Virus record (IMG/VR): IMGVR_UViG_3300043395_002359
Span: 29,041-93,040 of that record
DNA: 64,000 bases
From: a virus
Reading direction: 5' to 3' (one strand)
This document shows, piece by piece, positions 29,035 through 64,000 of the stretch (the stretch's first letter is position 1; every line of letters begins with the position of its first letter). The notes under the pieces were generated by a model, which saw only the letters and a list, made by a program, of their open reading frames with translations, was not told the origin of the DNA and ran no database searches. Position numbers and translations under genes: made by a program.

Positions 29035-29409
29035 ATGGTTAGATCGCACAACAAACGGCTGAACCTGACTCCAGAGCAGAAGGCCCTGGCTGAACAGGAG
29101 TGGCCCGAAATAGGTCGCTCTATCGCCATAGCCGTTGTCCATGGCGGGAAGACAATCACCTGGGCTTGGGAAATCCTGATGCCACTAGGGATTTACGAAT
29201 ATTGGATGCTTGTTTACTGGGTTAAGAAATGCAGGAGGAAGTGCAAGCCCACGCGATTAGCAAGGGGGAGACCAAGAGCTGTTACCTCTGTCAGTCGTCG
29301 ATCAGTATTCAAGAGTCAAGAAGACATCAAGTTGGCCATGCGCATGCTGACTGATGGTATTGATCCACAAGAGGTGATTGACACGTATAATAAAAAAAGG
29401 GAGGAATAG
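29035..29409 (+). CDS. Hypothetical basic protein
   Basis: Divergent from the initiator; TACACT -10-like element just upstream. Confidence 0.6.
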   Translation: MVRSHNKRLNLTPEQKALAEQEWPEIGRSIAIAVVHGGKTITWAWEILMPLGIYEYWMLVYWVKKCRRKCKPTRLARGRPRAVTSVSRRSVFKSQEDIKLAMRMLTDGIDPQEVIDTYNKKREE

Positions 29410-29671: not shown

Positions 29672-30382
29672 ATGGCAGACGTACCCAATCTCGCTGGTAT
29701 TGCAACCCAGGACTTAGTTGAGACCATTGGTAGTGGCTCCTACAAGGCCAGTTACATAAACTGGGCCAGGACCATGAACCTGCTGCATGAGCACGCTCCT
29801 GGCTGGGCTCCTGAAATGCTGCCTACCAGTGATGGAGGCTGGGTCCACCCGGCCCCTGGTTCAGGCGGCTTTCTGATGATTCGCTTTGTCCACACCGATG
29901 GATCCGTGCGGCCCGCTTACCCGCAAAGCATCATGGATCATCGAAACAATGCCATACCCTTAGATAAAATCACGGCCAGAGACGTAACCGACACACATAG
30001 ACGCGGTTCCTGTATGGCCGCTGCCATGGAATTTGGCTTGGGGCATGAGCTGTGGGCAAAGATGCCACTGGAAAGTGGCTACCATGACGAGCCAGGAACC
30101 GCTCCAAGCAGTCCTACTACAGCAGGCTTTAAGGCCCAGAAGTCAGCGACCCAGAAGGACTTCCTCGAGGCTTGTCTTGATAAAGGTCTTACCAGTTATG
30201 CAGCGGATAATCTCCTGAGTCTGATCAATGGCAATTACGAAGGAGGCCTCAGAACACTGGCAAGTAAAACGGTAGAATGGGTTGCCGAGCAAAACGCAAA
30301 GGCAGAGCCCCCTACTGAGGAAGCACAGAATAGCAAAGCACCAAAAAAGACAACAAGCAAGCCGAAACCGGAGGATTACTGA
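29672..30382 (+). CDS. Single-strand annealing protein (DUF1071/Sak3-like)
   Basis: ASYINWA...SIMDHRNNAI...RDVTDTHRRG...GLGHELWA. Confidence 0.75.
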   Translation: MADVPNLAGIATQDLVETIGSGSYKASYINWARTMNLLHEHAPGWAPEMLPTSDGGWVHPAPGSGGFLMIRFVHTDGSVRPAYPQSIMDHRNNAIPLDKITARDVTDTHRRGSCMAAAMEFGLGHELWAKMPLESGYHDEPGTAPSSPTTAGFKAQKSATQKDFLEACLDKGLTSYAADNLLSLINGNYEGGLRTLASKTVEWVAEQNAKAEPPTEEAQNSKAPKKTTSKPKPEDY

Positions 30383-32610: not shown

Positions 32611-33015
32611 ATGGAGATCACCGCAACTCAAAAAGAAATCTCAGTTATTTGTGACAATGTAAAGAACTTGCTTCTATCTAAAAACAAAAAATATGGCGAT
32701 TCTGCACTAAATCCAGCGAGGGTCTTCAGTAAAGCGAATGCGACCGAGCAAATCCTGGTCAGAATTGATGATAAATTGTCAAGAATTGCCAGAGGCGTAG
32801 GCCTATTTGCTAATGACGAAGACGTTATCAATGATCTGATAGGCTACCTTGTTCTGCTCAAAATCTCTTTAAAAAGAGAGGCTGGCCAGGCGTGGGACGG
32901 CACAGATATTGATTCTTTCGCCAAAACGCCTAATCATTGGGACTCTAGTGTATTGCCTGGTTCGGATGGGCAGGATTTGCTCGAATTGCACAAATCAGGC
33001 GACAAGTTTGCCTGA
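32611..33015 (+). CDS. DUF1599-like (nucleotide-modification-associated) protein
   Basis: KNKKYGDS...VRIDDKLSRI...EDVINDLIGYLVL. Confidence 0.75.
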   Translation: MEITATQKEISVICDNVKNLLLSKNKKYGDSALNPARVFSKANATEQILVRIDDKLSRIARGVGLFANDEDVINDLIGYLVLLKISLKREAGQAWDGTDIDSFAKTPNHWDSSVLPGSDGQDLLELHKSGDKFA

Positions 33016-33364
33016 CTATACAATTGTAATCAAGCAACCCCTATTCTCCAAGGCTAGACCAAGGCTCACCAGGAGCGGCCACGCCTATATGCCACCTGCC
33101 TACAAGACAGCTCAGGCTGTAATGAGGAAGCAAATAAAAGAACAATGGCATGAGGGCCCCCTCGAGGGGCCTATTTCATTGTCAATCAAGGTAAAAGGTG
33201 AAGGCAGAGGAGATACCGACAACATAGCAGGTGCATTTATGGATGTAGCTCAAGGCATAATCTTTACTGATGACAGGGTCAGTGTTATACCGAGCCTCTC
33301 GATAGTATGGGAGAAGGCGACGAAGGCAAAATCGGAATGGATAATCGAGATAAGGTTGTTATAA
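33008..33364 (+). CDS. rusA: RusA-like Holliday junction resolvase
   Basis: SKARPR...GDTDNIAGAFMD...IFTDD. Confidence 0.8.
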   Translation: MPDYTIVIKQPLFSKARPRLTRSGHAYMPPAYKTAQAVMRKQIKEQWHEGPLEGPISLSIKVKGEGRGDTDNIAGAFMDVAQGIIFTDDRVSVIPSLSIVWEKATKAKSEWIIEIRLL

Positions 33365-33386
33365 TGTGGATCATATTGGTCGATGC

Positions 33387-34226
33387 ATGGCCGCCGTCGC
33401 GTATAACCAGCCCGATGCTGACTACCGCAGAGAGCTTGGCGAAAACCAGAGCTACCTGAAGAACATACTGGTAAGTCCTGCTCACTACAAAGCAGCGAAG
33501 GTAAGGCGCTTTCCTGTTACCACAAATATGGAAGTCGGTTCGGCTCTTCACTGCAAGGCGCTTGAAGGTGATGATGAGTTCAACCAAAGGTTTTTACTGA
33601 AACCAGATGGTATAGCTTTTAATACCAAAGAAGGGAAGGACTGGAAGGCTTCAAACAAGGGAAAGACTATTTTAGCGAAACAGGACTATGACAATGTCCT
33701 GGGAATGGCAGAAGCACTGTCTAGATTCGACTGGTTTAATCCCGATCAACCTGATTACAGGAAATACAACGAACTGTCTATCTATTGGGAGGCGGATGGC
33801 ATCCCCTGCAAGGGAAGGCTCGACAGACTGGTCGAGATGGATGACCATCTTCTTGTCTTGGATCTTAAGACAACTGATTCAGTTGATTTCTCTACCTTTT
33901 TGAAAAAAGTTGTAGGGGGAATGAACTATGTATTTCAGGCTGCCTGGTACGCTGAGGCCGCTAGCCTGGCTTTTAATAAACCAGCTAAGTTCGTCTTTAT
34001 CGGCATCGAAAGAGCCGAGCCTTGGGCTACAGGCGTTTTCGAGGTGTCAGATGACATGATGACAGAAGGTATTGCTCAAATCAACAAAGCAAGAAAAATA
34101 TTAAAGGAATGCCTTAGGACCAAGGAATGGCCAAGGCCCAAAGTATCTTATAATGTGCTTGAGCTACCTACGTGGTACCGCACGCTAGCCGACGAAGGTT
34201 CCATTCACGAAGGAGACCTATTCTGA
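33387..34226 (+). CDS. PD-(D/E)XK exonuclease (RecE/exoVIII C-terminal-like)
   Basis: SPAHY, GSALH, CKGRLDR, LDLKTT, YVFQAAWY. Confidence 0.85.
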   Translation: MAAVAYNQPDADYRRELGENQSYLKNILVSPAHYKAAKVRRFPVTTNMEVGSALHCKALEGDDEFNQRFLLKPDGIAFNTKEGKDWKASNKGKTILAKQDYDNVLGMAEALSRFDWFNPDQPDYRKYNELSIYWEADGIPCKGRLDRLVEMDDHLLVLDLKTTDSVDFSTFLKKVVGGMNYVFQAAWYAEAASLAFNKPAKFVFIGIERAEPWATGVFEVSDDMMTEGIAQINKARKILKECLRTKEWPRPKVSYNVLELPTWYRTLADEGSIHEGDLF

Positions 34227-57371: not shown

Positions 57372-57674
57372 GTGGCGGCAAGACCAACCCATGGCTATTA
57401 CTCCAAAAATAGGAGTGAAGTTGATGTCTATCTAACGCACGCATCTAGGCCAGTCAATCCAAACAAATTCTCCAAATTCATAGGTGTCCACAAAAACAGC
57501 AACCCACTCAAGCCTTATAGAGCTGCTATACGCTTTAAGGGCAAAAAGTACCAAATTGGCGTATTTGCAGACGAAATAGAGGCTGCAAAAGCCTATAACA
57601 AAGTGGCTTTGAGTCTTATTGGTCCTAGGGCTTTAATCAATGAAATCCCAGAAACGACTCAGGAATCTAACTAA
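57372..57674 (+). CDS. AP2-domain DNA-binding protein
   Basis: SKFIGV...YRAAIR...IGVFADEIEAAKAYNKVA. Confidence 0.85.
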   Translation: MAARPTHGYYSKNRSEVDVYLTHASRPVNPNKFSKFIGVHKNSNPLKPYRAAIRFKGKKYQIGVFADEIEAAKAYNKVALSLIGPRALINEIPETTQESN

Positions 57675-57909
57675 TTTCCCCTTGGCCGGCAGCAAAAGCA
57701 CTTTAACTGAAGCCGACGATTTGGGTTCTCCAATAGAGACGCCGCCGTGCTGCTCTGTATGGAAGGACATCAGACACGAATTTGTGTGGTATGCTTTTGC
57801 TGAGTACCCAGGCTACTTGTGTATGCCATCCACAAAAGAGGGATGGAGGATCAACTTTTGTCCATCATGTGGCAAGCCATCCCGTGGCTCAATCTGGAAA
57901 CCGCAATGA
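57640..57909 (+). CDS. Cys-rich hypothetical protein
   Basis: CC...INFCPSCGK. Confidence 0.6.
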   Translation: MKSQKRLRNLTNFPLAGSKSTLTEADDLGSPIETPPCCSVWKDIRHEFVWYAFAEYPGYLCMPSTKEGWRINFCPSCGKPSRGSIWKPQ

Positions 57910-58190
57910 CTAACAAGAGAACATTTCTGCCACCACCTCAAGAACTGATAGACAGGTGGGTAAAAGAGTCCGACTCCAGGCCTACTATGCAAACAGCATG
58001 GAGTTATGTGGTCTACAAGTCTTCCGAGTGGGGGTATAACCAAGCCTTCGAGCCTCATCCTGATAGCATAAAGGCAAAAGCCCTTAGGGCGCTATCCAAG
58101 ATCGAAGCACTGGATATTGTATCCGTGTGGATTGGTAAAGATGCCGTGCAACAAATAAAAAACGCCCTCGAATCACTCCCTAATCACTGA
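57906..58190 (+). CDS. Divergent PITPPPEL-family member
   Basis: LPPPQELIDRW...EWGYNQ...SIKAKALRAL...IKNALESLP. Confidence 0.7.
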   Translation: MTNKRTFLPPPQELIDRWVKESDSRPTMQTAWSYVVYKSSEWGYNQAFEPHPDSIKAKALRALSKIEALDIVSVWIGKDAVQQIKNALESLPNH

Positions 58191-58408
58191 TGGCTAACTC
58201 TATTGCTACCCCAAAGGGTTTAGAAAATTATTATGTGCTATCTGGCAGAGCCTTTATTCAATTAGCTGGTGTCTTGAAAAACAAAGGCATAAGTTCTATT
58301 GCTCCATCACAACTGGAAGAAATGGGTCGACAAATTATTCAAGTCGTCACAAAGCAAAATAATTCCTGATGGAATGAATGGTAAAATATTCTATCCCGTA
58401 CTTGAGCC

Positions 58409-58837
58409 ATGAACGAAAATCAGGTCCAAATTGAAGTTGATAGCGATGTCAATGTCGAAGATATCGATATCGAAGAGGATGTTTACGAGCTTCATCGGCA
58501 TGTCAATGCTGATGGAACAATAGTTGAAAGAATGGTCAAAAGGCCAAAGGAAAAGCCTAACCTTCTAAAAAGTGCTGCCCAAACAGCTAAGGATCTTGCT
58601 GGTGGAGGCTTTGCTCCTGGCACAGTGTCCAAAGCAAGGCTTGATATTTGCCTGAAATGCGAATATCTAAGCCATAACGTTACCTGCAATCTTTGCGGAT
58701 GTTTCATGGAGGCTAAGACGAGAGTGGCTTTTGCAAGTTGTCCAAAGGGCAAGTGGGGCCCGACAGAAAAAACCGGAGAAGGAGTTCCTTACCCTGCTCC
58801 AAACGCTGAGCCAATTCTCGTCAGGGAAGATCAGTAA
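58409..58837 (+). CDS. Cys-rich metal-binding protein (DUF6171-like)
   Basis: RLDICLKCE...CNLCGCF...CPKGKW; GGTAAAATAT begins 29 nt upstream. Confidence 0.7.
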   Translation: MNENQVQIEVDSDVNVEDIDIEEDVYELHRHVNADGTIVERMVKRPKEKPNLLKSAAQTAKDLAGGGFAPGTVSKARLDICLKCEYLSHNVTCNLCGCFMEAKTRVAFASCPKGKWGPTEKTGEGVPYPAPNAEPILVREDQ

Positions 58838-58882
58838 AATCGTCTGGCGTCTAAGCCATAAGAAACGCTAATAGCTGGGCCG

Positions 58883-58911
58883 TTGACACCCGCCAGCGGC
58901 TCGACTAATTT
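58883..58911 (+). promoter_or_regulatory. Sigma70-type promoter
   Basis: TTGACA-17 nt-TAATTT upstream of the ligase. Confidence 0.65.
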
Positions 58912-58936
58912 AGAGGAGTCCAAAAGGGAGTTCCCA

Positions 58937-59818
58937 ATGCCCCGAATCACCAAGCCCATGCTCGCTGGTACATACGACCCAGCTAAGGCCAAGTTTCCTT
59001 ACATGGCTACACCCAAGATCGACGGGATTCGTTTCCTCATGATTGACGGTGTTGCCGTCTCCAGAACCTTTAAGCCCATCCGCAATCAGTACGTTCAACA
59101 GCTTCTCAAGGAAACACTGCCAAATGGCACAGACGGAGAGCTGACTTGCGGTAATGATTTCCAATCGTCATCGTCGGCGATTATGTCAGTCGATGGTCGG
59201 CCTGATTTCAACTGCTGGATTTTCGATTATGTCGATCCAGGGATTGACGCTATTGACGACTATATGCAGCGTATCGAGCATCCATTCCTTAAGGAACTTG
59301 AAGATGAAAATGATTTCATCACTGTTCTAAAGCCAGAATTGGTCTTGAGCGAAGCCGAGCTGCGGCGCGTTGAACAGGACTATCTTGATGCTGGATTCGA
59401 AGGCGTGATGCTCAGGGATCCAAAGGGTGGATACAAGTTCGGTCGTTCAACCGTCAAAGAAAATACCCTGCTCAAGGTAAAGCGCTTTCTTGATGACGAA
59501 GCAGAATTGATTGATGTCCTAGAGAAGCAGCACAATCAAAACGAAGCTCAGCAAGACGCGTTTGGTCGTACCAAGCGTTCCACTGCTCAGGATGGATTGG
59601 TAGGTGCTTGCACTGCTGGTACATTGGTTGTACGTAACAGGGATGGTATGGAGTTCGGTATTGGTACCGGACTTGATGATCGCCTCAGGAATGAGATTTG
59701 GGCTAACCCAGAAGCGTACAAGGGCATGCTAGTAAAATATAAGTATTTCCCGGTTGGCATCAAAGAGAAGCCCAGGCACCCTGTCTTCCTTGGTTTTCGT
59801 CACCAAGATGACATCTGA
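58937..59818 (+). CDS. lig: ATP-dependent DNA ligase (minimal type)
   Basis: PKIDGIR, DGEL, FEGVMLR, LLKVKRF, KPRHPVFLGFR. Confidence 0.93.
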   Translation: MPRITKPMLAGTYDPAKAKFPYMATPKIDGIRFLMIDGVAVSRTFKPIRNQYVQQLLKETLPNGTDGELTCGNDFQSSSSAIMSVDGRPDFNCWIFDYVDPGIDAIDDYMQRIEHPFLKELEDENDFITVLKPELVLSEAELRRVEQDYLDAGFEGVMLRDPKGGYKFGRSTVKENTLLKVKRFLDDEAELIDVLEKQHNQNEAQQDAFGRTKRSTAQDGLVGACTAGTLVVRNRDGMEFGIGTGLDDRLRNEIWANPEAYKGMLVKYKYFPVGIKEKPRHPVFLGFRHQDDI

Positions 59819-59851
59819 TTTTCTTTACCTTAACCAATTTCGGAACACTCC

Positions 59852-60118
59852 ATGCCTTCACCTGAACAGGAAAAAGAGAACACCAAGCTAAGTGTTCTGA
59901 AGACAATCGACTTTCTTATGTCCAAGCTTGAATCAAATATATCTGATATCAAATCAGACCTACTAGAGGAAAGAGAGTATTATGCTAATCCTATACATGA
60001 ATCTTGTTCTAGGTATGAAGACTTTGTCCTAGAAGAATTAGAAAAGAGTTGTCTTACCGCAGAAGCACATTTTCACAACCTCGAGCTGTTAAGAAAATTC
60101 TGGGAAGAAGACTTCTAG
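59852..60118 (+). CDS. Hypothetical protein
   Basis: 88 aa acidic ORF. Confidence 0.6.
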   Translation: MPSPEQEKENTKLSVLKTIDFLMSKLESNISDIKSDLLEEREYYANPIHESCSRYEDFVLEELEKSCLTAEAHFHNLELLRKFWEEDF

Positions 60119-60150
60119 TTTTTACCCAGTCAAAGCCAACCCATCCTCCA

Positions 60151-60444
60151 ATGACCGCCGCCTGCTTCCACGTTATCGAGCTTAATGGCAAGCTGATATT
60201 TGAATCAATGCATTCAAATTTCAGAATGGCAATTAGCGAATACCTGAATGGAGAAAAGAATGAAGGTATTCAATTAAATATCAAAGACCTATGCGGCAAT
60301 AATGAAGAGGATATTGTGGTCAATATGACATTGGTAAGAATGAAGCAAAATCCACAGGATAATATAGTCAAGCCAGGCGCTCCGGTCAGGGTGAAAGCTC
60401 CAGTAAAGGCAGAGGCAACAGCTAGTGACACTTGCTTCTATTGA
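60151..60444 (+). CDS. Hypothetical protein
   Basis: ATG 60151 preferred. Confidence 0.55.
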   Translation: MTAACFHVIELNGKLIFESMHSNFRMAISEYLNGEKNEGIQLNIKDLCGNNEEDIVVNMTLVRMKQNPQDNIVKPGAPVRVKAPVKAEATASDTCFY

Positions 60445-60447
60445 ATC

Positions 60448-60651
60448 ATGCTAAAATCAGCAGCAGTAGCCTCAATTCTGATTTTTGTGCCAACATTTAT
60501 ATTCCTGTTGGCTTACCACATGGCTCCAGCAGTCGATGAAGAAATAGAGTCAAAAGCGTATAATGTAGTTGACAGTTATCATGGTTGTGATATCATCCGT
60601 TACACGGATACGACTAACCGTTGGCACTACTTCATGAAATGCAATGACTGA
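60448..60651 (+). CDS. Membrane-anchored hypothetical protein
   Basis: TM then VVDSYHGCDIIRY...YFMKC. Confidence 0.65.
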   Translation: MLKSAAVASILIFVPTFIFLLAYHMAPAVDEEIESKAYNVVDSYHGCDIIRYTDTTNRWHYFMKCND

Positions 60652-60838
60652 GATCACTCCACCACCAGAATTGATTCAACAATGGATCAGGGAAGCAAAC
60701 CACAATGAGCCAATGTTTGCTCAAGTAGCAATCATTGCGGCTCGATGGGGTTACCAGCAATGTAACGCTGAATACGAATTTGCCGCAATGGACTTAGTGC
60801 CGCCGACTTGGCTGGTGGAGGATGACGATGCCGAATGA
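60644..60838 (+). CDS. Truncated or chimeric PITPPPEL-family member
   Basis: ITPPPELIQQW...AARWGYQQ then an unrelated tail. Confidence 0.7.
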   Translation: MTEITPPPELIQQWIREANHNEPMFAQVAIIAARWGYQQCNAEYEFAAMDLVPPTWLVEDDDAE

Positions 60839-61064
60839 ATACAAGCGCAACGCACGCTTTAATTACTTAGCAGACTATGATTACTTTGCTAAACCAGATG
60901 ACTTCATCGAAGTAACCGAATGGTACAATGGTGAGGGCTTCGATGTTCAGCTCAGTACCAGCGCTGGTGAGCAACGCATGTCATTTAGTTGGGGTGAATA
61001 CTCAGCATTGAAGGCAACACTTGGTAACTGGGCTGATGACAATTCGGAGGATGCAAATGACTGA
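60828..61064 (+). CDS. Hypothetical protein
   Basis: DFIEVTEWYNGEGFDV; GGAGG SD. Confidence 0.7.
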   Translation: MPNEYKRNARFNYLADYDYFAKPDDFIEVTEWYNGEGFDVQLSTSAGEQRMSFSWGEYSALKATLGNWADDNSEDAND

Positions 61065-61103
61065 ACTTACTCCCGAATTGCTGATGAATTGGAGGCACTC
61101 TAA
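61057..61103 (+). pseudogene. Collapsed gene remnant
   Basis: MTELTP start joined out of frame to RIADELEAL-stop. Confidence 0.5.
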
Positions 61104-61288
61104 TGACTGAAATGAAAGAAAAAGCAAAAGAAGTTCTCTATGCTTATATGGATGTAGAAAAGGATTTGTCTCAACCTAAAATCCTCATTCATACATTCAA
61201 GGAACTCATCAACCAACTCCAACAAAGTCCTGGTGTGATTATGTGTGCTGATGTGTTAGAATTGTGTGAGGAACTGGAGGCACTATGA
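61103..61288 (+). CDS. Hypothetical protein
   Basis: GGAGG SD; ends EELEAL. Confidence 0.65.
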   Translation: MTEMKEKAKEVLYAYMDVEKDLSQPKILIHTFKELINQLQQSPGVIMCADVLELCEELEAL

Positions 61289-61506
61289 AAAACTTTGATG
61301 AAATTGATTGGGCAGTTTTGTCTGTATTTTTTATTATAATCGTTGCTGCTGGTATTATTACTTATGATGCCCAACAACAACGAGCACTCTTTCAACAAAC
61401 ATACAATAAGAACTTGGAGTGTCGTCAAGCACTCAAAGACCAAACAATAGGAAGAGTGAATGAGATTTGTGGAGAAGTTCCTGCTATTGGAGCTTTTGTG
61501 AGATGA
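61285..61506 (+). CDS. Membrane-anchored hypothetical protein
   Basis: ATGA overlap; TM helix. Confidence 0.65.
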   Translation: MKNFDEIDWAVLSVFFIIIVAAGIITYDAQQQRALFQQTYNKNLECRQALKDQTIGRVNEICGEVPAIGAFVR

Positions 61507-61544
61507 ACCAATATTATAACGACTATCCAAAAGGAATTTAAAGA

Positions 61545-61775
61545 ATGACTGACCTTGAACGACTACAAGCATATGACAAGGAACTCTCAAAAGTTATGCC
61601 TTCCGATTATAAAGATTGGTGGATGAATTCAAAGGACGAATGGCCTTTGGTTGCTCGTTATGTGATTGAGAGTTTGAAAAAGGATAGGGAATGGTGTTAT
61701 GAGACGATTGATATAATGTCAAAGAAAATTGAAGAACTTGACAGTAAATTGAAAACTTTTGAGGTGAAAGAATGA
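61545..61775 (+). CDS. Hypothetical protein
   Basis: 76 aa ORF. Confidence 0.65.
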   Translation: MTDLERLQAYDKELSKVMPSDYKDWWMNSKDEWPLVARYVIESLKKDREWCYETIDIMSKKIEELDSKLKTFEVKE

Positions 61776-61978
61776 CTAAAAGAGTACAAAAGATTATGGA
61801 GGCATTCTACAAGGATTGGACTGATGACGAACATTCCGATGACCCTATTGCTGTTGCTAATGTTCTTCAATACTTGATTGATAATCACGGAGAACCAAGA
61901 GGAACTGGAAGAGTTGATAAGGGATTTCAAGTAGTATCTGTAAAAACTTTGATGAAACTTATTCAGGAACTGAAATGA
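61772..61978 (+). CDS. Hypothetical protein
   Basis: ATGA overlap; layout resembles 61103..61288. Confidence 0.65.
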   Translation: MTKRVQKIMEAFYKDWTDDEHSDDPIAVANVLQYLIDNHGEPRGTGRVDKGFQVVSVKTLMKLIQELK

Positions 61979-62154
61979 CTGAAGCAATTGAAGTAGCATA
62001 CTACGAAGACAAAATCCTCTGTGCTTTTTCTACCCGTGATGAATGCAAAAACTTTCTCAATAAAGAATACCCCGATATTGACAAGTTTGATGTTGAGTTA
62101 AAGACTCAATTTATTAGTCCTCTTGAACCTTATGTTGGTGTAATACCACGATGA
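61975..62154 (+). CDS. Hypothetical protein (59 aa, not in ORF track)
   Basis: MTEAIEVAYY...YVGVIPR; ATGA overlaps at both ends. Confidence 0.65.
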   Translation: MTEAIEVAYYEDKILCAFSTRDECKNFLNKEYPDIDKFDVELKTQFISPLEPYVGVIPR

Positions 62155-62474
62155 CTGATCATCCAATCATCCCACCGCCGGAGCTGGTGCAGCACTGGTT
62201 TGACAGCAACACTGCCTACGCGGATGACATACGCCGAGCCGCCCAATGGGGCGCAGACCGGGAACTGGAGGCGATTCAAAAAGAGATTATTACGCAAGCC
62301 TGGTTTGTAGATCCAAGGCATCGCCTTGCTCAACTCCGCGCCGCTAGACGCCCTAACCCGCCGAGCGTAAAACAACAAGCCTTGACTGACCTTGGTAATG
62401 CGTATAACGCAAACCAAATTGACGACACAACCTACGAAAACATTTTACGCGCATTGGAGGCGTTACCCGAATGA
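62151..62474 (+). CDS. PITPPPEL-family protein
   Basis: Four conserved blocks shared with neighbours. Confidence 0.8.
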   Translation: MTDHPIIPPPELVQHWFDSNTAYADDIRRAAQWGADRELEAIQKEIITQAWFVDPRHRLAQLRAARRPNPPSVKQQALTDLGNAYNANQIDDTTYENILRALEALPE

Positions 62475-62806
62475 CTGACCACCCGATCACCCCACCGCCG
62501 GAGCTGCGGTGTGAATGGCAATCAGAGTCGCCGTTCAAGGTTATTAGCGTTGAGCGCGAAGATTACATGATTGATCGCGCCGCCCAATGGGGAGCGGACC
62601 AGGAGCTGGAGGCGTGCTGTGAGTGGCTTCACTGGCAAAACCTGGCCACACATTCCGAACTTATCCCTTCGCTCCGCGCCGCCAGACGCCCCAAGCCGCC
62701 GAGCTTGAAGGAGCAGGCGTTGGAGGCACTAGACCGCATGGATCAATTTCCTACTGCCGATGACCAACACACTATCCGCCGCGCACTGGAGCAACTACCC
62801 GAATGA
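62471..62806 (+). CDS. PITPPPEL-family protein
   Basis: Four conserved blocks; ATGA overlap. Confidence 0.8.
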   Translation: MTDHPITPPPELRCEWQSESPFKVISVEREDYMIDRAAQWGADQELEACCEWLHWQNLATHSELIPSLRAARRPKPPSLKEQALEALDRMDQFPTADDQHTIRRALEQLPE

Positions 62807-63015
62807 CGTACTTAACAGGCCACAGTCAAGAAATCAAAGGACTGCTTGCAGCTCTTGGCATTGAGTGCAAGGGCGTCACTGGGCTGCGCTTAATTGTTGA
62901 ACCCGATCGCTTTGTTCGACTTGAACTGGAGCGATCGGTCAGTACCGATGAAGTAGCGGAGCTGACAACATGGATCTTGAAGCAAAACATTGAAGCGGAG
63001 CAACTCGATGACTGA
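62803..63015 (+). CDS. Unrelated hypothetical protein inside the array
   Basis: 70 aa; overlap-coupled on both sides. Confidence 0.65.
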   Translation: MTYLTGHSQEIKGLLAALGIECKGVTGLRLIVEPDRFVRLELERSVSTDEVAELTTWILKQNIEAEQLDD

Positions 63016-63364
63016 CCACCCCATCACCCCACCGCCGGAGCTGGTGCATCAGTGGGCGAATCACTCCGCTTCTGTTCACAGGGAAAACGGCACCTACGAG
63101 CAACACGAGTTTGCTATCGCCACCCAGGCCGCCCGCTGGGGAGCTGACCAGGAGCTGGAGGCGTGTGTAGAGTGGCTTGGTGATGCTCCTGTTGTATGGG
63201 ACAACAATGGCGATCTTCATCCAGGTTCATATTTAAGAGATGCCCGTCGCCCTAAACCAAGCTTGAAGAAGCAGGCATTAGAGGCCATGCACCGCAACTG
63301 GAACCCACACAACAACGACGATTTCGACACCATCCGCCGCGCACTGGAGTCAATAAATGACTGA
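63008..63364 (+). CDS. PITPPPEL-family protein
   Basis: ATG 63008; four conserved blocks. Confidence 0.8.
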   Translation: MTDHPITPPPELVHQWANHSASVHRENGTYEQHEFAIATQAARWGADQELEACVEWLGDAPVVWDNNGDLHPGSYLRDARRPKPSLKKQALEAMHRNWNPHNNDDFDTIRRALESIND

Positions 63365-63716
63365 CCACAATCCCATTTCACCATTGAATCTTGTACCCGA
63401 GGAACTACTGGATAAATGGGTGGAAGATTGGCCCCATGCCAAAGTCAAGCACATTGAACTTGTGCCTTACATTGCCGCCATGGCTGCCCAATGGGGTGCC
63501 GACCAAGAGATACTGGCTTGCGGAAATTACCTCAAGCAATGCGCTCAGTGGGAAGAGGAAGACGTGACTGAGTTTTACAATTACCGCCGTCCCCAGCCGG
63601 CGTCCTTGAAGGAAAAGGCATACGCTGCAATTGACAAAATTGAACGCAGTGGTTACCCAACAGATGATCTTTACACCATCCGCCGCGCCCTTGAACAACT
63701 TCCCGATCACAAGTAG
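63357..63716 (+). CDS. PITPPPEL-family protein (divergent)
   Basis: AAQWGADQE, SLKEKA, TIRRALEQLPD. Confidence 0.8.
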   Translation: MTDHNPISPLNLVPEELLDKWVEDWPHAKVKHIELVPYIAAMAAQWGADQEILACGNYLKQCAQWEEEDVTEFYNYRRPQPASLKEKAYAAIDKIERSGYPTDDLYTIRRALEQLPDHK

Positions 63717-63735
63717 TCGCTTCCACTAATCACCC

Positions 63736-64000
63736 ATGACACAACAACATCCCATCACTCTGCCTCCGAAAGTGTTGCAACAGTTACGCAGTAAAGCTCC
63801 TGCTGAAGGTTGGTTTCGCGACGCATGGATTGCCGAGCAAGCCGCTAAATGGGGCGCCGACCAGGAATTACAGGCGTGCTGTGAGTGGCTGGAAAACCAA
63901 CCCCAGTGGATGGAGGATCTCCGCGCCGCCCGCCGCTCCAAGCCGCCGAGCTTGAAGAAGCAGGCGCTAATGGCATTGGAGGATGGCGACACTGGCCCTG
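63736..64000 (+). CDS. PITPPPEL-family protein, 3'-truncated by window edge
   Basis: MTQQHPITLPP...AAKWGADQELQACCEWL...LRAARRSKPPSLKKQAL; absent from ORF track. Confidence 0.8.
   Translation, partial: MTQQHPITLPPKVLQQLRSKAPAEGWFRDAWIAEQAAKWGADQELQACCEWLENQPQWMEDLRAARRSKPPSLKKQALMALEDGDTGP

Follow-up and report, generated by a model that had tools for sequence, protein, structure and literature searches.

A phage protein family in a cyanophage-like genome with variable segments apparently shuffled at conserved DNA blocks

INTRODUCTION

The described cases of intragenic cassette shuffling concern virion adhesins and bacterial surface antigens. In Neisseria, the SV, HV1, and HV2 regions of the Opa proteins reassort among paralogous loci, and exchange of segments of the phage tail-fibre adhesin gp38 was reportedly described by Tetart et al. 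in 1998. In the gp38 adhesins of T2/T6-type phages, glycine-rich motifs separate the hypervariable segments, and exchange takes place within these motifs or close to them (PMC3157838). Here, we analyze an array of small paralogous genes in a 64,000-nt stretch of viral DNA (hereafter the window), which forms the final 64 kb of a 93,040-bp IMG/VR virus record (G000, positions 29041 to 93040). We propose, with a probability of about 0.8, that these genes are paralogs of a very large phage-borne family in which DNA-conserved blocks frame three variable segments (V1 to V3) that are shuffled by homologous recombination, which would place such shuffling in a small, acidic, non-structural protein.

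By analogy, gp38 is the closest described design. As in the family of the window, a small phage protein is built of alternating conserved motifs and hypervariable segments, exchange within the motifs or close to them forms chimeras, and a library of interchangeable segments is common to the phage population. The family shares the apparent shuffling of hypervariable segments by recombination in or near conserved motifs, and the likeness is a functional analogy only; judged by the comparisons made here, the family does not appear to belong with gp38. Pfam and PHROGs give no gp38 family for it and the PDB and BFVD fold lists do not contain gp38, an absence that does not exclude a relation. In contrast to the gp38 motifs, the blocks of the family are predicted to be helical and are enriched for A, E, R, P, and L, and they contain a single Gly, in block B. 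Further, the genes lie among early and DNA-metabolism genes rather than in a tail-fibre locus, show no sign of a virion role, and occur in tandem multicopy arrays, with exchange across unrelated phage types (contigs of 38 to 150 kb).

The Opa proteins resemble the family in being multicopy, in having two or three hypervariable regions in a conserved frame, and in reassorting by homologous recombination. They are, however, bacterial outer-membrane beta-barrels facing host immunity, whereas the family is a predicted cytoplasmic helical phage protein whose exchange would be mainly between genomes. Diversity-generating retroelements (DGRs) likewise join a phage protein scaffold to targeted variable positions, but they do so by adenine-directed point mutagenesis, unlike the discrete cassettes under purifying selection seen here. 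Phage Rad52-like recombinases, which promote exchange between diverged sequences, offer a mechanism by which short or diverged homology could suffice for exchange (PMC3945230). That work deals with gene-scale mosaics in temperate coliphages, whereas the units of the family are 40- to 90-nt intragenic cassettes; the window itself encodes a Sak-type annealing protein, a nuclease, and RusA.

RESULTS

The array and its constant blocks

Open reading frame (ORF) listing and alignment define five tandem copies, c1 (62151..62474; 107 aa), c2 (62471..62806; 111 aa), c3 (63008..63364; 118 aa), c4 (63357..63716; 119 aa), and c5 (63736..64000; at least 88 aa), and two outliers, o1 (57906..58190; 94 aa) and o2 (60644..60838; 64 aa). 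All are on the + strand, in the same direct orientation. An initial annotation, made from the DNA alone, had assigned these seven ORFs to one family; indeed, all seven match phrog_32006, a phage family without assigned function. The E-values are 9e-18 to 3e-30 over profile positions 5 to 114 for the four complete tandem copies and 5e-24 over profile positions 2 to 94 for c5, and the outliers give partial matches (1.5e-4 and 0.01).

Four constant blocks, A (HPITPPPEL..W), B (AAQWGADQELEACCEWL), C (LRAARRPKPPSLKEQAL), and D (TIRRALExLP), frame the three variable segments. The blocks are 27 to 50 nt long and the cassettes between them, all intragenic, 40 to 90 nt. In c2, which is nearest to the family DNA consensus (blocks 0.95 to 1.00), block A spans 62480 to 62506, V1 62507 to 62578, block B 62579 to 62629, V2 62630 to 62671, block C 62672 to 62722, V3 62723 to 62770, and block D 62771 to 62803. 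The string CCCACCGCCGGAGCTG occurs three times in the window (62171, 62491, and 63028), and GACCAGGAGCTGGAGGCGTG, CCAAGCCGCCGAGCTTGAAG, and ATCCGCCGCGCACTGGAG occur twice each; these exact counts agree with the initial annotation, and repetition of 16- to 20-mers within 64 kb is far beyond chance. Near-identity at the DNA level had been noted initially, but across whole blocks the window copies are 70 to 88% identical and not near-identical. The variable segments had also been called unalignable; this is correct when window copies are compared with one another, yet close relatives of each segment exist in other phages.

Reassortment of the variable segments

To describe how V1 to V3 are combined across the family, we used 125 proteins that can be segmented by the block motifs. 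Representatives at 50% identity were left out of these statistics because clustering at that level removes pairs that share a cassette. In each segment, pairwise identity is bimodal, being either at least 70% or at the random level or unalignable. Identities in different segments are uncorrelated (Spearman ~0), and the probability that two proteins share V3 given that they share V1 is 0.09. Single-linkage typing yields 75 V1, 68 V2, and 74 V3 types, and the adjusted mutual information between segments is ~0.1. The V1 type of c2 (11 members) is joined to 11 different V2 and 11 different V3 types, and its V2 type (46 members) to 28 V1 and 27 V3 types. The variable segments do not follow a single shared tree; their types reassort almost freely.

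The cassettes of all five tandem copies recur in other phages in other combinations, as seen among family proteins from elsewhere (P-numbers) and viral contig loci (L-numbers). P0013 has V1 of c2, V2 of c3, and a V3 of c2's type, P0127 combines V2 of c4 with V3 of c5, and P0006 has a V1 of c4's type with V2 of c2. V1 of c5 is found with another V2 in P0147, V2 of c1 with different V1 and V3 in P0242, and V3 of c3 and a V1 of c3's type in further combinations in P0126 and P0156, respectively; V2 of c4 is found again in L066 also. Two sister phages show the same behavior: L035 has c2's V2 with another V1, and in L053 a V3 of c2's type stands beside different V1 and V2 cassettes. Cultured Synechococcus phages are part of this network, with V1 of S-H1 common to P0194 and L038 and its V2 to P0168, V2 of S-CBS2 common to P0161, and V3 of S-RIP1 common to L055.

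Within cassette types, the ratio of nonsynonymous to synonymous differences (pN/pS) is 0.19 to 0.25, which indicates that the cassettes encode selected peptides. Across these proteins, V1 to V3 behave as discrete heritable units under purifying selection that reassort almost freely.

DNA mosaics between phages

The same pattern is visible in DNA. The near-identity of c2 to L006 extends over block A, V1, and block B, after which the two are unalignable; with L024, c2 agrees over block B, V2, and block C (97% over 134 nt); and with L022, it agrees in V3. Such tracts of 93 to 97% DNA identity cover one cassette and its blocks. Outside the family genes, the compared loci have at most short, weak matches to the window genome (56 to 239 nt), apart from the sister phages L035 and L053, which are 69 to 77% identical to it over longer flank matches. 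Where tracts of at least 95% identity are partial, they end preferentially at the outer edge of block B or block C. As read from these comparisons, whole cassettes have been exchanged between genes of otherwise unrelated phages, with tract borders at the outer block edges, and such transfers are apparently recent. Diversification by recombination at the constant blocks had been suggested initially, and the discrete types, the near-free reassortment, and the DNA mosaics all speak for it. Homologous recombination within the 27- to 50-nt blocks during co-infection would swap cassettes, and the phage's own Sak/PDDEXK/RusA module may drive the exchange.

Conservation of block DNA and possible membership of an exchanging pool

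Codon homozygosity at 44 conserved degenerate block codons averages 0.67 across 90 distinct gene copies, versus 0.35 when these amino acids are taken from the variable parts of those genes. At specific positions, codons that are otherwise seldom used are nearly fixed, such as CCA-CCG-CCG for PPP, GCG (89%), TGT (88%), TTG (85%), and AGC (87%). Synonymous divergence (pS) in the blocks is 0.42, versus 0.83 expected for codons drawn according to variable-part usage, and is ~0.37 to 0.40 even for gene pairs without a common cassette. With such values, and with rare codons fixed, the synonymous sites of the blocks are far from the saturation that, together with variable segments aligning on one tree, the initial annotation had named as refuting its reading. 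RNA structure was rejected as the cause of this conservation, as the blocks have no match in Rfam and block RNA folds no better than shuffled sequences (z of -0.26 to +1.75).

Between window copies, block pS is 0.35 to 0.55 among c1 to c3 and 0.69 to 0.89 for c4 versus the others, c4 being saturated. Because these values are not below the family mean, the array does not appear to be homogenized internally and would exchange with the population pool, suggesting that exchange is population-wide and not mainly conversion inside the array.

Base composition varies along with the block DNA. The GC content of the family is 0.59 +/- 0.04, with flanks at 0.35 to 0.65 and a regression slope of 0.29. 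In the window, GC content is 0.59 in c2, 0.58 in c5, 0.56 in c3, 0.53 in c1, 0.50 in c4, 0.49 in o2, and 0.47 in o1, with a backbone of 0.42 to 0.47. The match to consensus block DNA declines broadly in parallel, from its top in c2 to background in the outliers. Copies that have consensus block DNA (c2, c5, and c3) may remain in the shared pool and keep exchanging, and copies that have drifted to backbone GC without block DNA (c4, the most diverged of the tandem copies, and o1 and o2) may leave it to become ordinary resident genes. We infer from these trends that pool membership is set by retained anchors.

The outliers fit the structure first described for them: o1 is divergent and has blocks A, B, C, and D as protein without V2, and o2 is an N-terminal half only, with blocks A and B-like followed by unrelated sequence. 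Neither, however, keeps the block DNA of the family, as their matches to the consensus (0.45 to 0.59) are at the level of the unrelated 70-aa ORF between c2 and c3. Orthologs of o1 lie at the same place in L035 and L053, and by these comparisons o1 is a vertically inherited gene that has lost the DNA anchor sequences. o2 is similar to the N-terminal half of a 130-aa family member in L053. At the other end of the array, c5 is ended within V3 by the record border. P0127 shares the start of c5's V3 and has a normal block D beyond it, which makes c5 probably a complete gene that the record end has cut.

Alternative explanations

Ordinary tandem duplication followed by divergence, with fast-evolving loops, purifying selection on the core, and no recombination, would explain why the copies are tandem and head-to-tail, why helices coincide with conserved blocks, and why c4 has saturated block synonymous sites relative to the other copies. 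We nevertheless regard it as very improbable: cassettes at 93 to 97% or higher DNA identity occur in unrelated phages beside unalignable cassettes, the segments are near linkage equilibrium, block pS is 0.42 despite unalignable V segments, and the window copies are not closer to one another than to copies in other phages. The mosaic could also be an artefact of short-read metagenome assembly that switches between paralogs or strains at shared blocks. The blocks are indeed 27 to 50 nt of near-identical DNA, ~17 of 80 loci (L006 to L085) have a family gene at most 600 nt from a contig end, and the record of the window itself ends inside c5. Typical final assembly k-mers are longer than the blocks. 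The three cultured, individually sequenced phages (S-H1, S-RIP1, and S-CBS2) take part in the cassette network, identical full-length proteins occur on up to 21 independent contigs, and identical arrays come from different samples (e.g., L040/L041, L024/L025, and L014/L015), leaving very little credence for an artefact.

The blocks might instead be cis-acting sites and not be homogenized by recombination; they could form RNA structures, signal translational coupling, or be recognized by a dedicated system for recombination or mobility. Otherwise rare codons fixed by position and a standard junction from the stop after block D to the start before block A agree with this idea, as does the start motif ATGACTGA, of which 9 of the 12 window occurrences lie within 60644 to 63357 (2.7 kb). 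Against it stand the Rfam and folding results above, the strong conservation of the blocks as protein too, and the 93-kb record itself, which has no match to a reverse transcriptase or to either a tyrosine or a serine recombinase. We consider it unlikely, and it could coexist with recombination at the blocks. Several points weigh against the latter explanation. Recombination is deduced from comparative patterns, and many family-bearing contigs lack an attested annealing protein. Most comparison sequences were collected by similarity to c2, which inflates sharing with c2 cassettes; even so, cassettes without relation to c2 reassort as well. Joining errors at shared blocks are in principle possible in metagenome assembly, and low synonymous divergence in the blocks could partly come from selection on DNA or RNA itself. 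Finally, the family has no link to function, with no domain, no fold match, no fusion partner, and no constant neighbor gene.

Size and distribution of the family

A word-indexed search with c2 returned at least 8000 clusters at 90% identity, of which 7999 of 8000 scored with E <= 1e-3, and all given names are "hypothetical". An exhaustive profile search gave 2313 representatives at 50% identity (1331 with E <= 1e-10), and a scan of viral contigs of a few kb to 150 kb found at least 592 loci. Prokaryote genomes, taken one per species, yield just 11 loci, all on aquatic metagenome-bin contigs from assorted phyla (two are Cyanobium), which indicates that the family is essentially phage-borne. 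Its cultured carriers S-H1, S-RIP1, and S-CBS2 have one copy apiece. A family hidden Markov model finds one match in 51 of 81 records, two in 18, and three or more in 12 (30 of 81 with at least two).

N-half-only, C-half-only, and tandem-fusion forms recur. The longer forms, whether tandem fusions or N-terminal extensions, carry no known domains and no fusion partner. Some members have rearranged blocks: block B is split by an insert in L053 (5616 to 6008), block C is doubled in P0126, and P0132 carries a second B-C-D unit. Such forms would be expected of unequal exchange at the blocks.

Pfam gives no match for the window copies, for 57 family members, or for 10 longer or fused forms; NCBIfam gives none for the window copies; and a PDB sequence search gives nothing useful for the family. 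We found no description of the family in the literature. With thousands of clusters and no domain, structure, or name, it is among the larger uncharacterized phage protein families seen here. By a rough estimate, contig ends near family genes are commoner than expected; the family seems either to break short-read assemblies or to lie near genome ends. Loci of this kind disrupt metagenome assembly and are a potential source of error in gene trees and orthology assignment; they would also offer a clean system for measuring short-homology recombination in nature.

Predicted structure and possible function

AlphaFold2 models of c2 and c3 (predicted local distance difference test score [pLDDT] of 88 and 86, respectively) have the same five helices. 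V1 comprises the end of helix 1, the beginning of the long helix 2, and the turn joining them; V2 forms the end of helix 2 and the following loop; and V3 forms the turn from helix 4 to helix 5. Block C corresponds to a basic RRPKPPS loop. The protein, of ~115 aa, is acidic (median isoelectric point of 4.9 and net charge of -7), most of the negative charge being carried by V2 and V3. Foldseek gives no PDB fold match useful for the family model, and the best hit of a wide VIA-align fold search (Z of 5.3) is at background for helical proteins. The BFVD fold search matches only family members, and the ESM Atlas only unnamed viral clusters.

Clustering of neighboring genes reveals no constant partner, the commonest neighbors being present in about a quarter of loci. 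The recurrent neighbors are small early-region proteins, together with ORFs that we take, from their sequences, to be like a RecT, a PDDEXK nuclease, and a single-stranded DNA-binding protein.

The multicopy, all-different arrays and the purifying selection on cassettes would fit a binder repertoire, for which an anti-defence or host-protein-binding role had been suggested initially. Tentatively, the protein may be an intracellular binder with its specificity set by the cassettes, the repertoire being directed against variable host or rival-phage targets. If cassettes do set binding specificity, the family would offer a modular library of natural origin in which to study the arms race of phages with picocyanobacteria and other aquatic hosts. 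A more speculative and rather doubtful extension is that phages hold a population-wide combinatorial binder library in which each cassette recognizes a different variable host-defence or rival-phage component and the blocks are kept DNA-identical as recombination anchors by second-order selection. Were this true, unrelated lineages would have in common a repertoire resembling innate immunity, and the array would be the phage's current selection from the pool.

Recombination genes in the window

As annotated initially, a single-strand annealing protein, an exonuclease, and RusA are encoded in the window. The Sak-type (Rad52-like) single-strand annealing protein (29672..30382, + strand) matches PF06378 with an E-value of 3e-6, above the cut-off, and is a candidate catalyst of short-homology exchange. 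A RusA Holliday-junction resolvase (32909..33364, + strand; PF05866, E-value of 2e-10) is followed by a PDDEXK-type exonuclease (DUF3799; 33366..34226, + strand; PF12684, E-value of 2e-28), which is likely the partner of the annealing protein.

The whole 93-kb record gives no RVT_1 match, although control genomes did, and no Phage_integrase or Resolvase match, which extends to the full record the earlier statement that reverse transcriptases and site-specific recombinases are absent. A DGR was rejected on the lack of RVT_1 and of a template-like repeat among the direct repeats, and shufflon- or invertase-type shuffling on the lack of Phage_integrase and Resolvase matches and the direct orientation of all copies.

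Gene junctions and genome context

The array is tightly packed, with an ATGA overlap between c1 and c2 and an 8-nt overlap between c3 and c4. An unrelated 70-aa ORF without a family match lies between c2 and c3 (62803..63015, + strand); it follows block D of c2 with the stop/start junction GAATGAC, as in the array copies. Most small genes from 60644 to 63357 begin with MT(D/E) and overlap the preceding stop, and L053 has a like chain of small genes beginning with MT(D/E/N/T).

The record is classed as linear, with a CheckV completeness estimate of 100%. Circular closure was rejected, as the end and start share no overlap and c5 is not continued in frame to block D at the start. The record encodes the large and small terminase, portal, primase, ribonucleotide reductase, ThyX, two sigma-factor-like proteins, and a DnaB-like helicase, along with the recombination proteins described above. 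Its layout is in part like that of Synechococcus siphovirus S-CBS2 (sigma factor, RusA, and then exonuclease), and the host genome of the array is cyanophage-like. A megablast search of the array region against phage records found no match, the collection holding no near-identical phage record.

Upstream of the window, on GC-rich DNA, a ~25-nt element with a consensus near CAATGACCGGCGGGCCGTTCACGATC has at least eight copies in the first 2.3 kb of the record (G000 1 to 2250) and occurs also at ~3700; the record starts within one copy. It reads as DRRAV(R/H)D or GGPFT depending on the frame, and as the translations differ between frames, it is a DNA-level repeat rather than a protein motif. Within the window, a 100-aa ORF (57372 to 57674; YRAAIRFKGKKYQIGVF..EIEAAKAYN) resembles by eye an AP2-type DNA-binding domain, with no Pfam match at E <= 0.01. 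A 142-aa ORF (58409 to 58837) has a C-terminal match to the Cys-rich DUF6171 (E-value of 2e-6) and lies directly upstream of the gene for an ATP-dependent DNA ligase (58883 to 59818).

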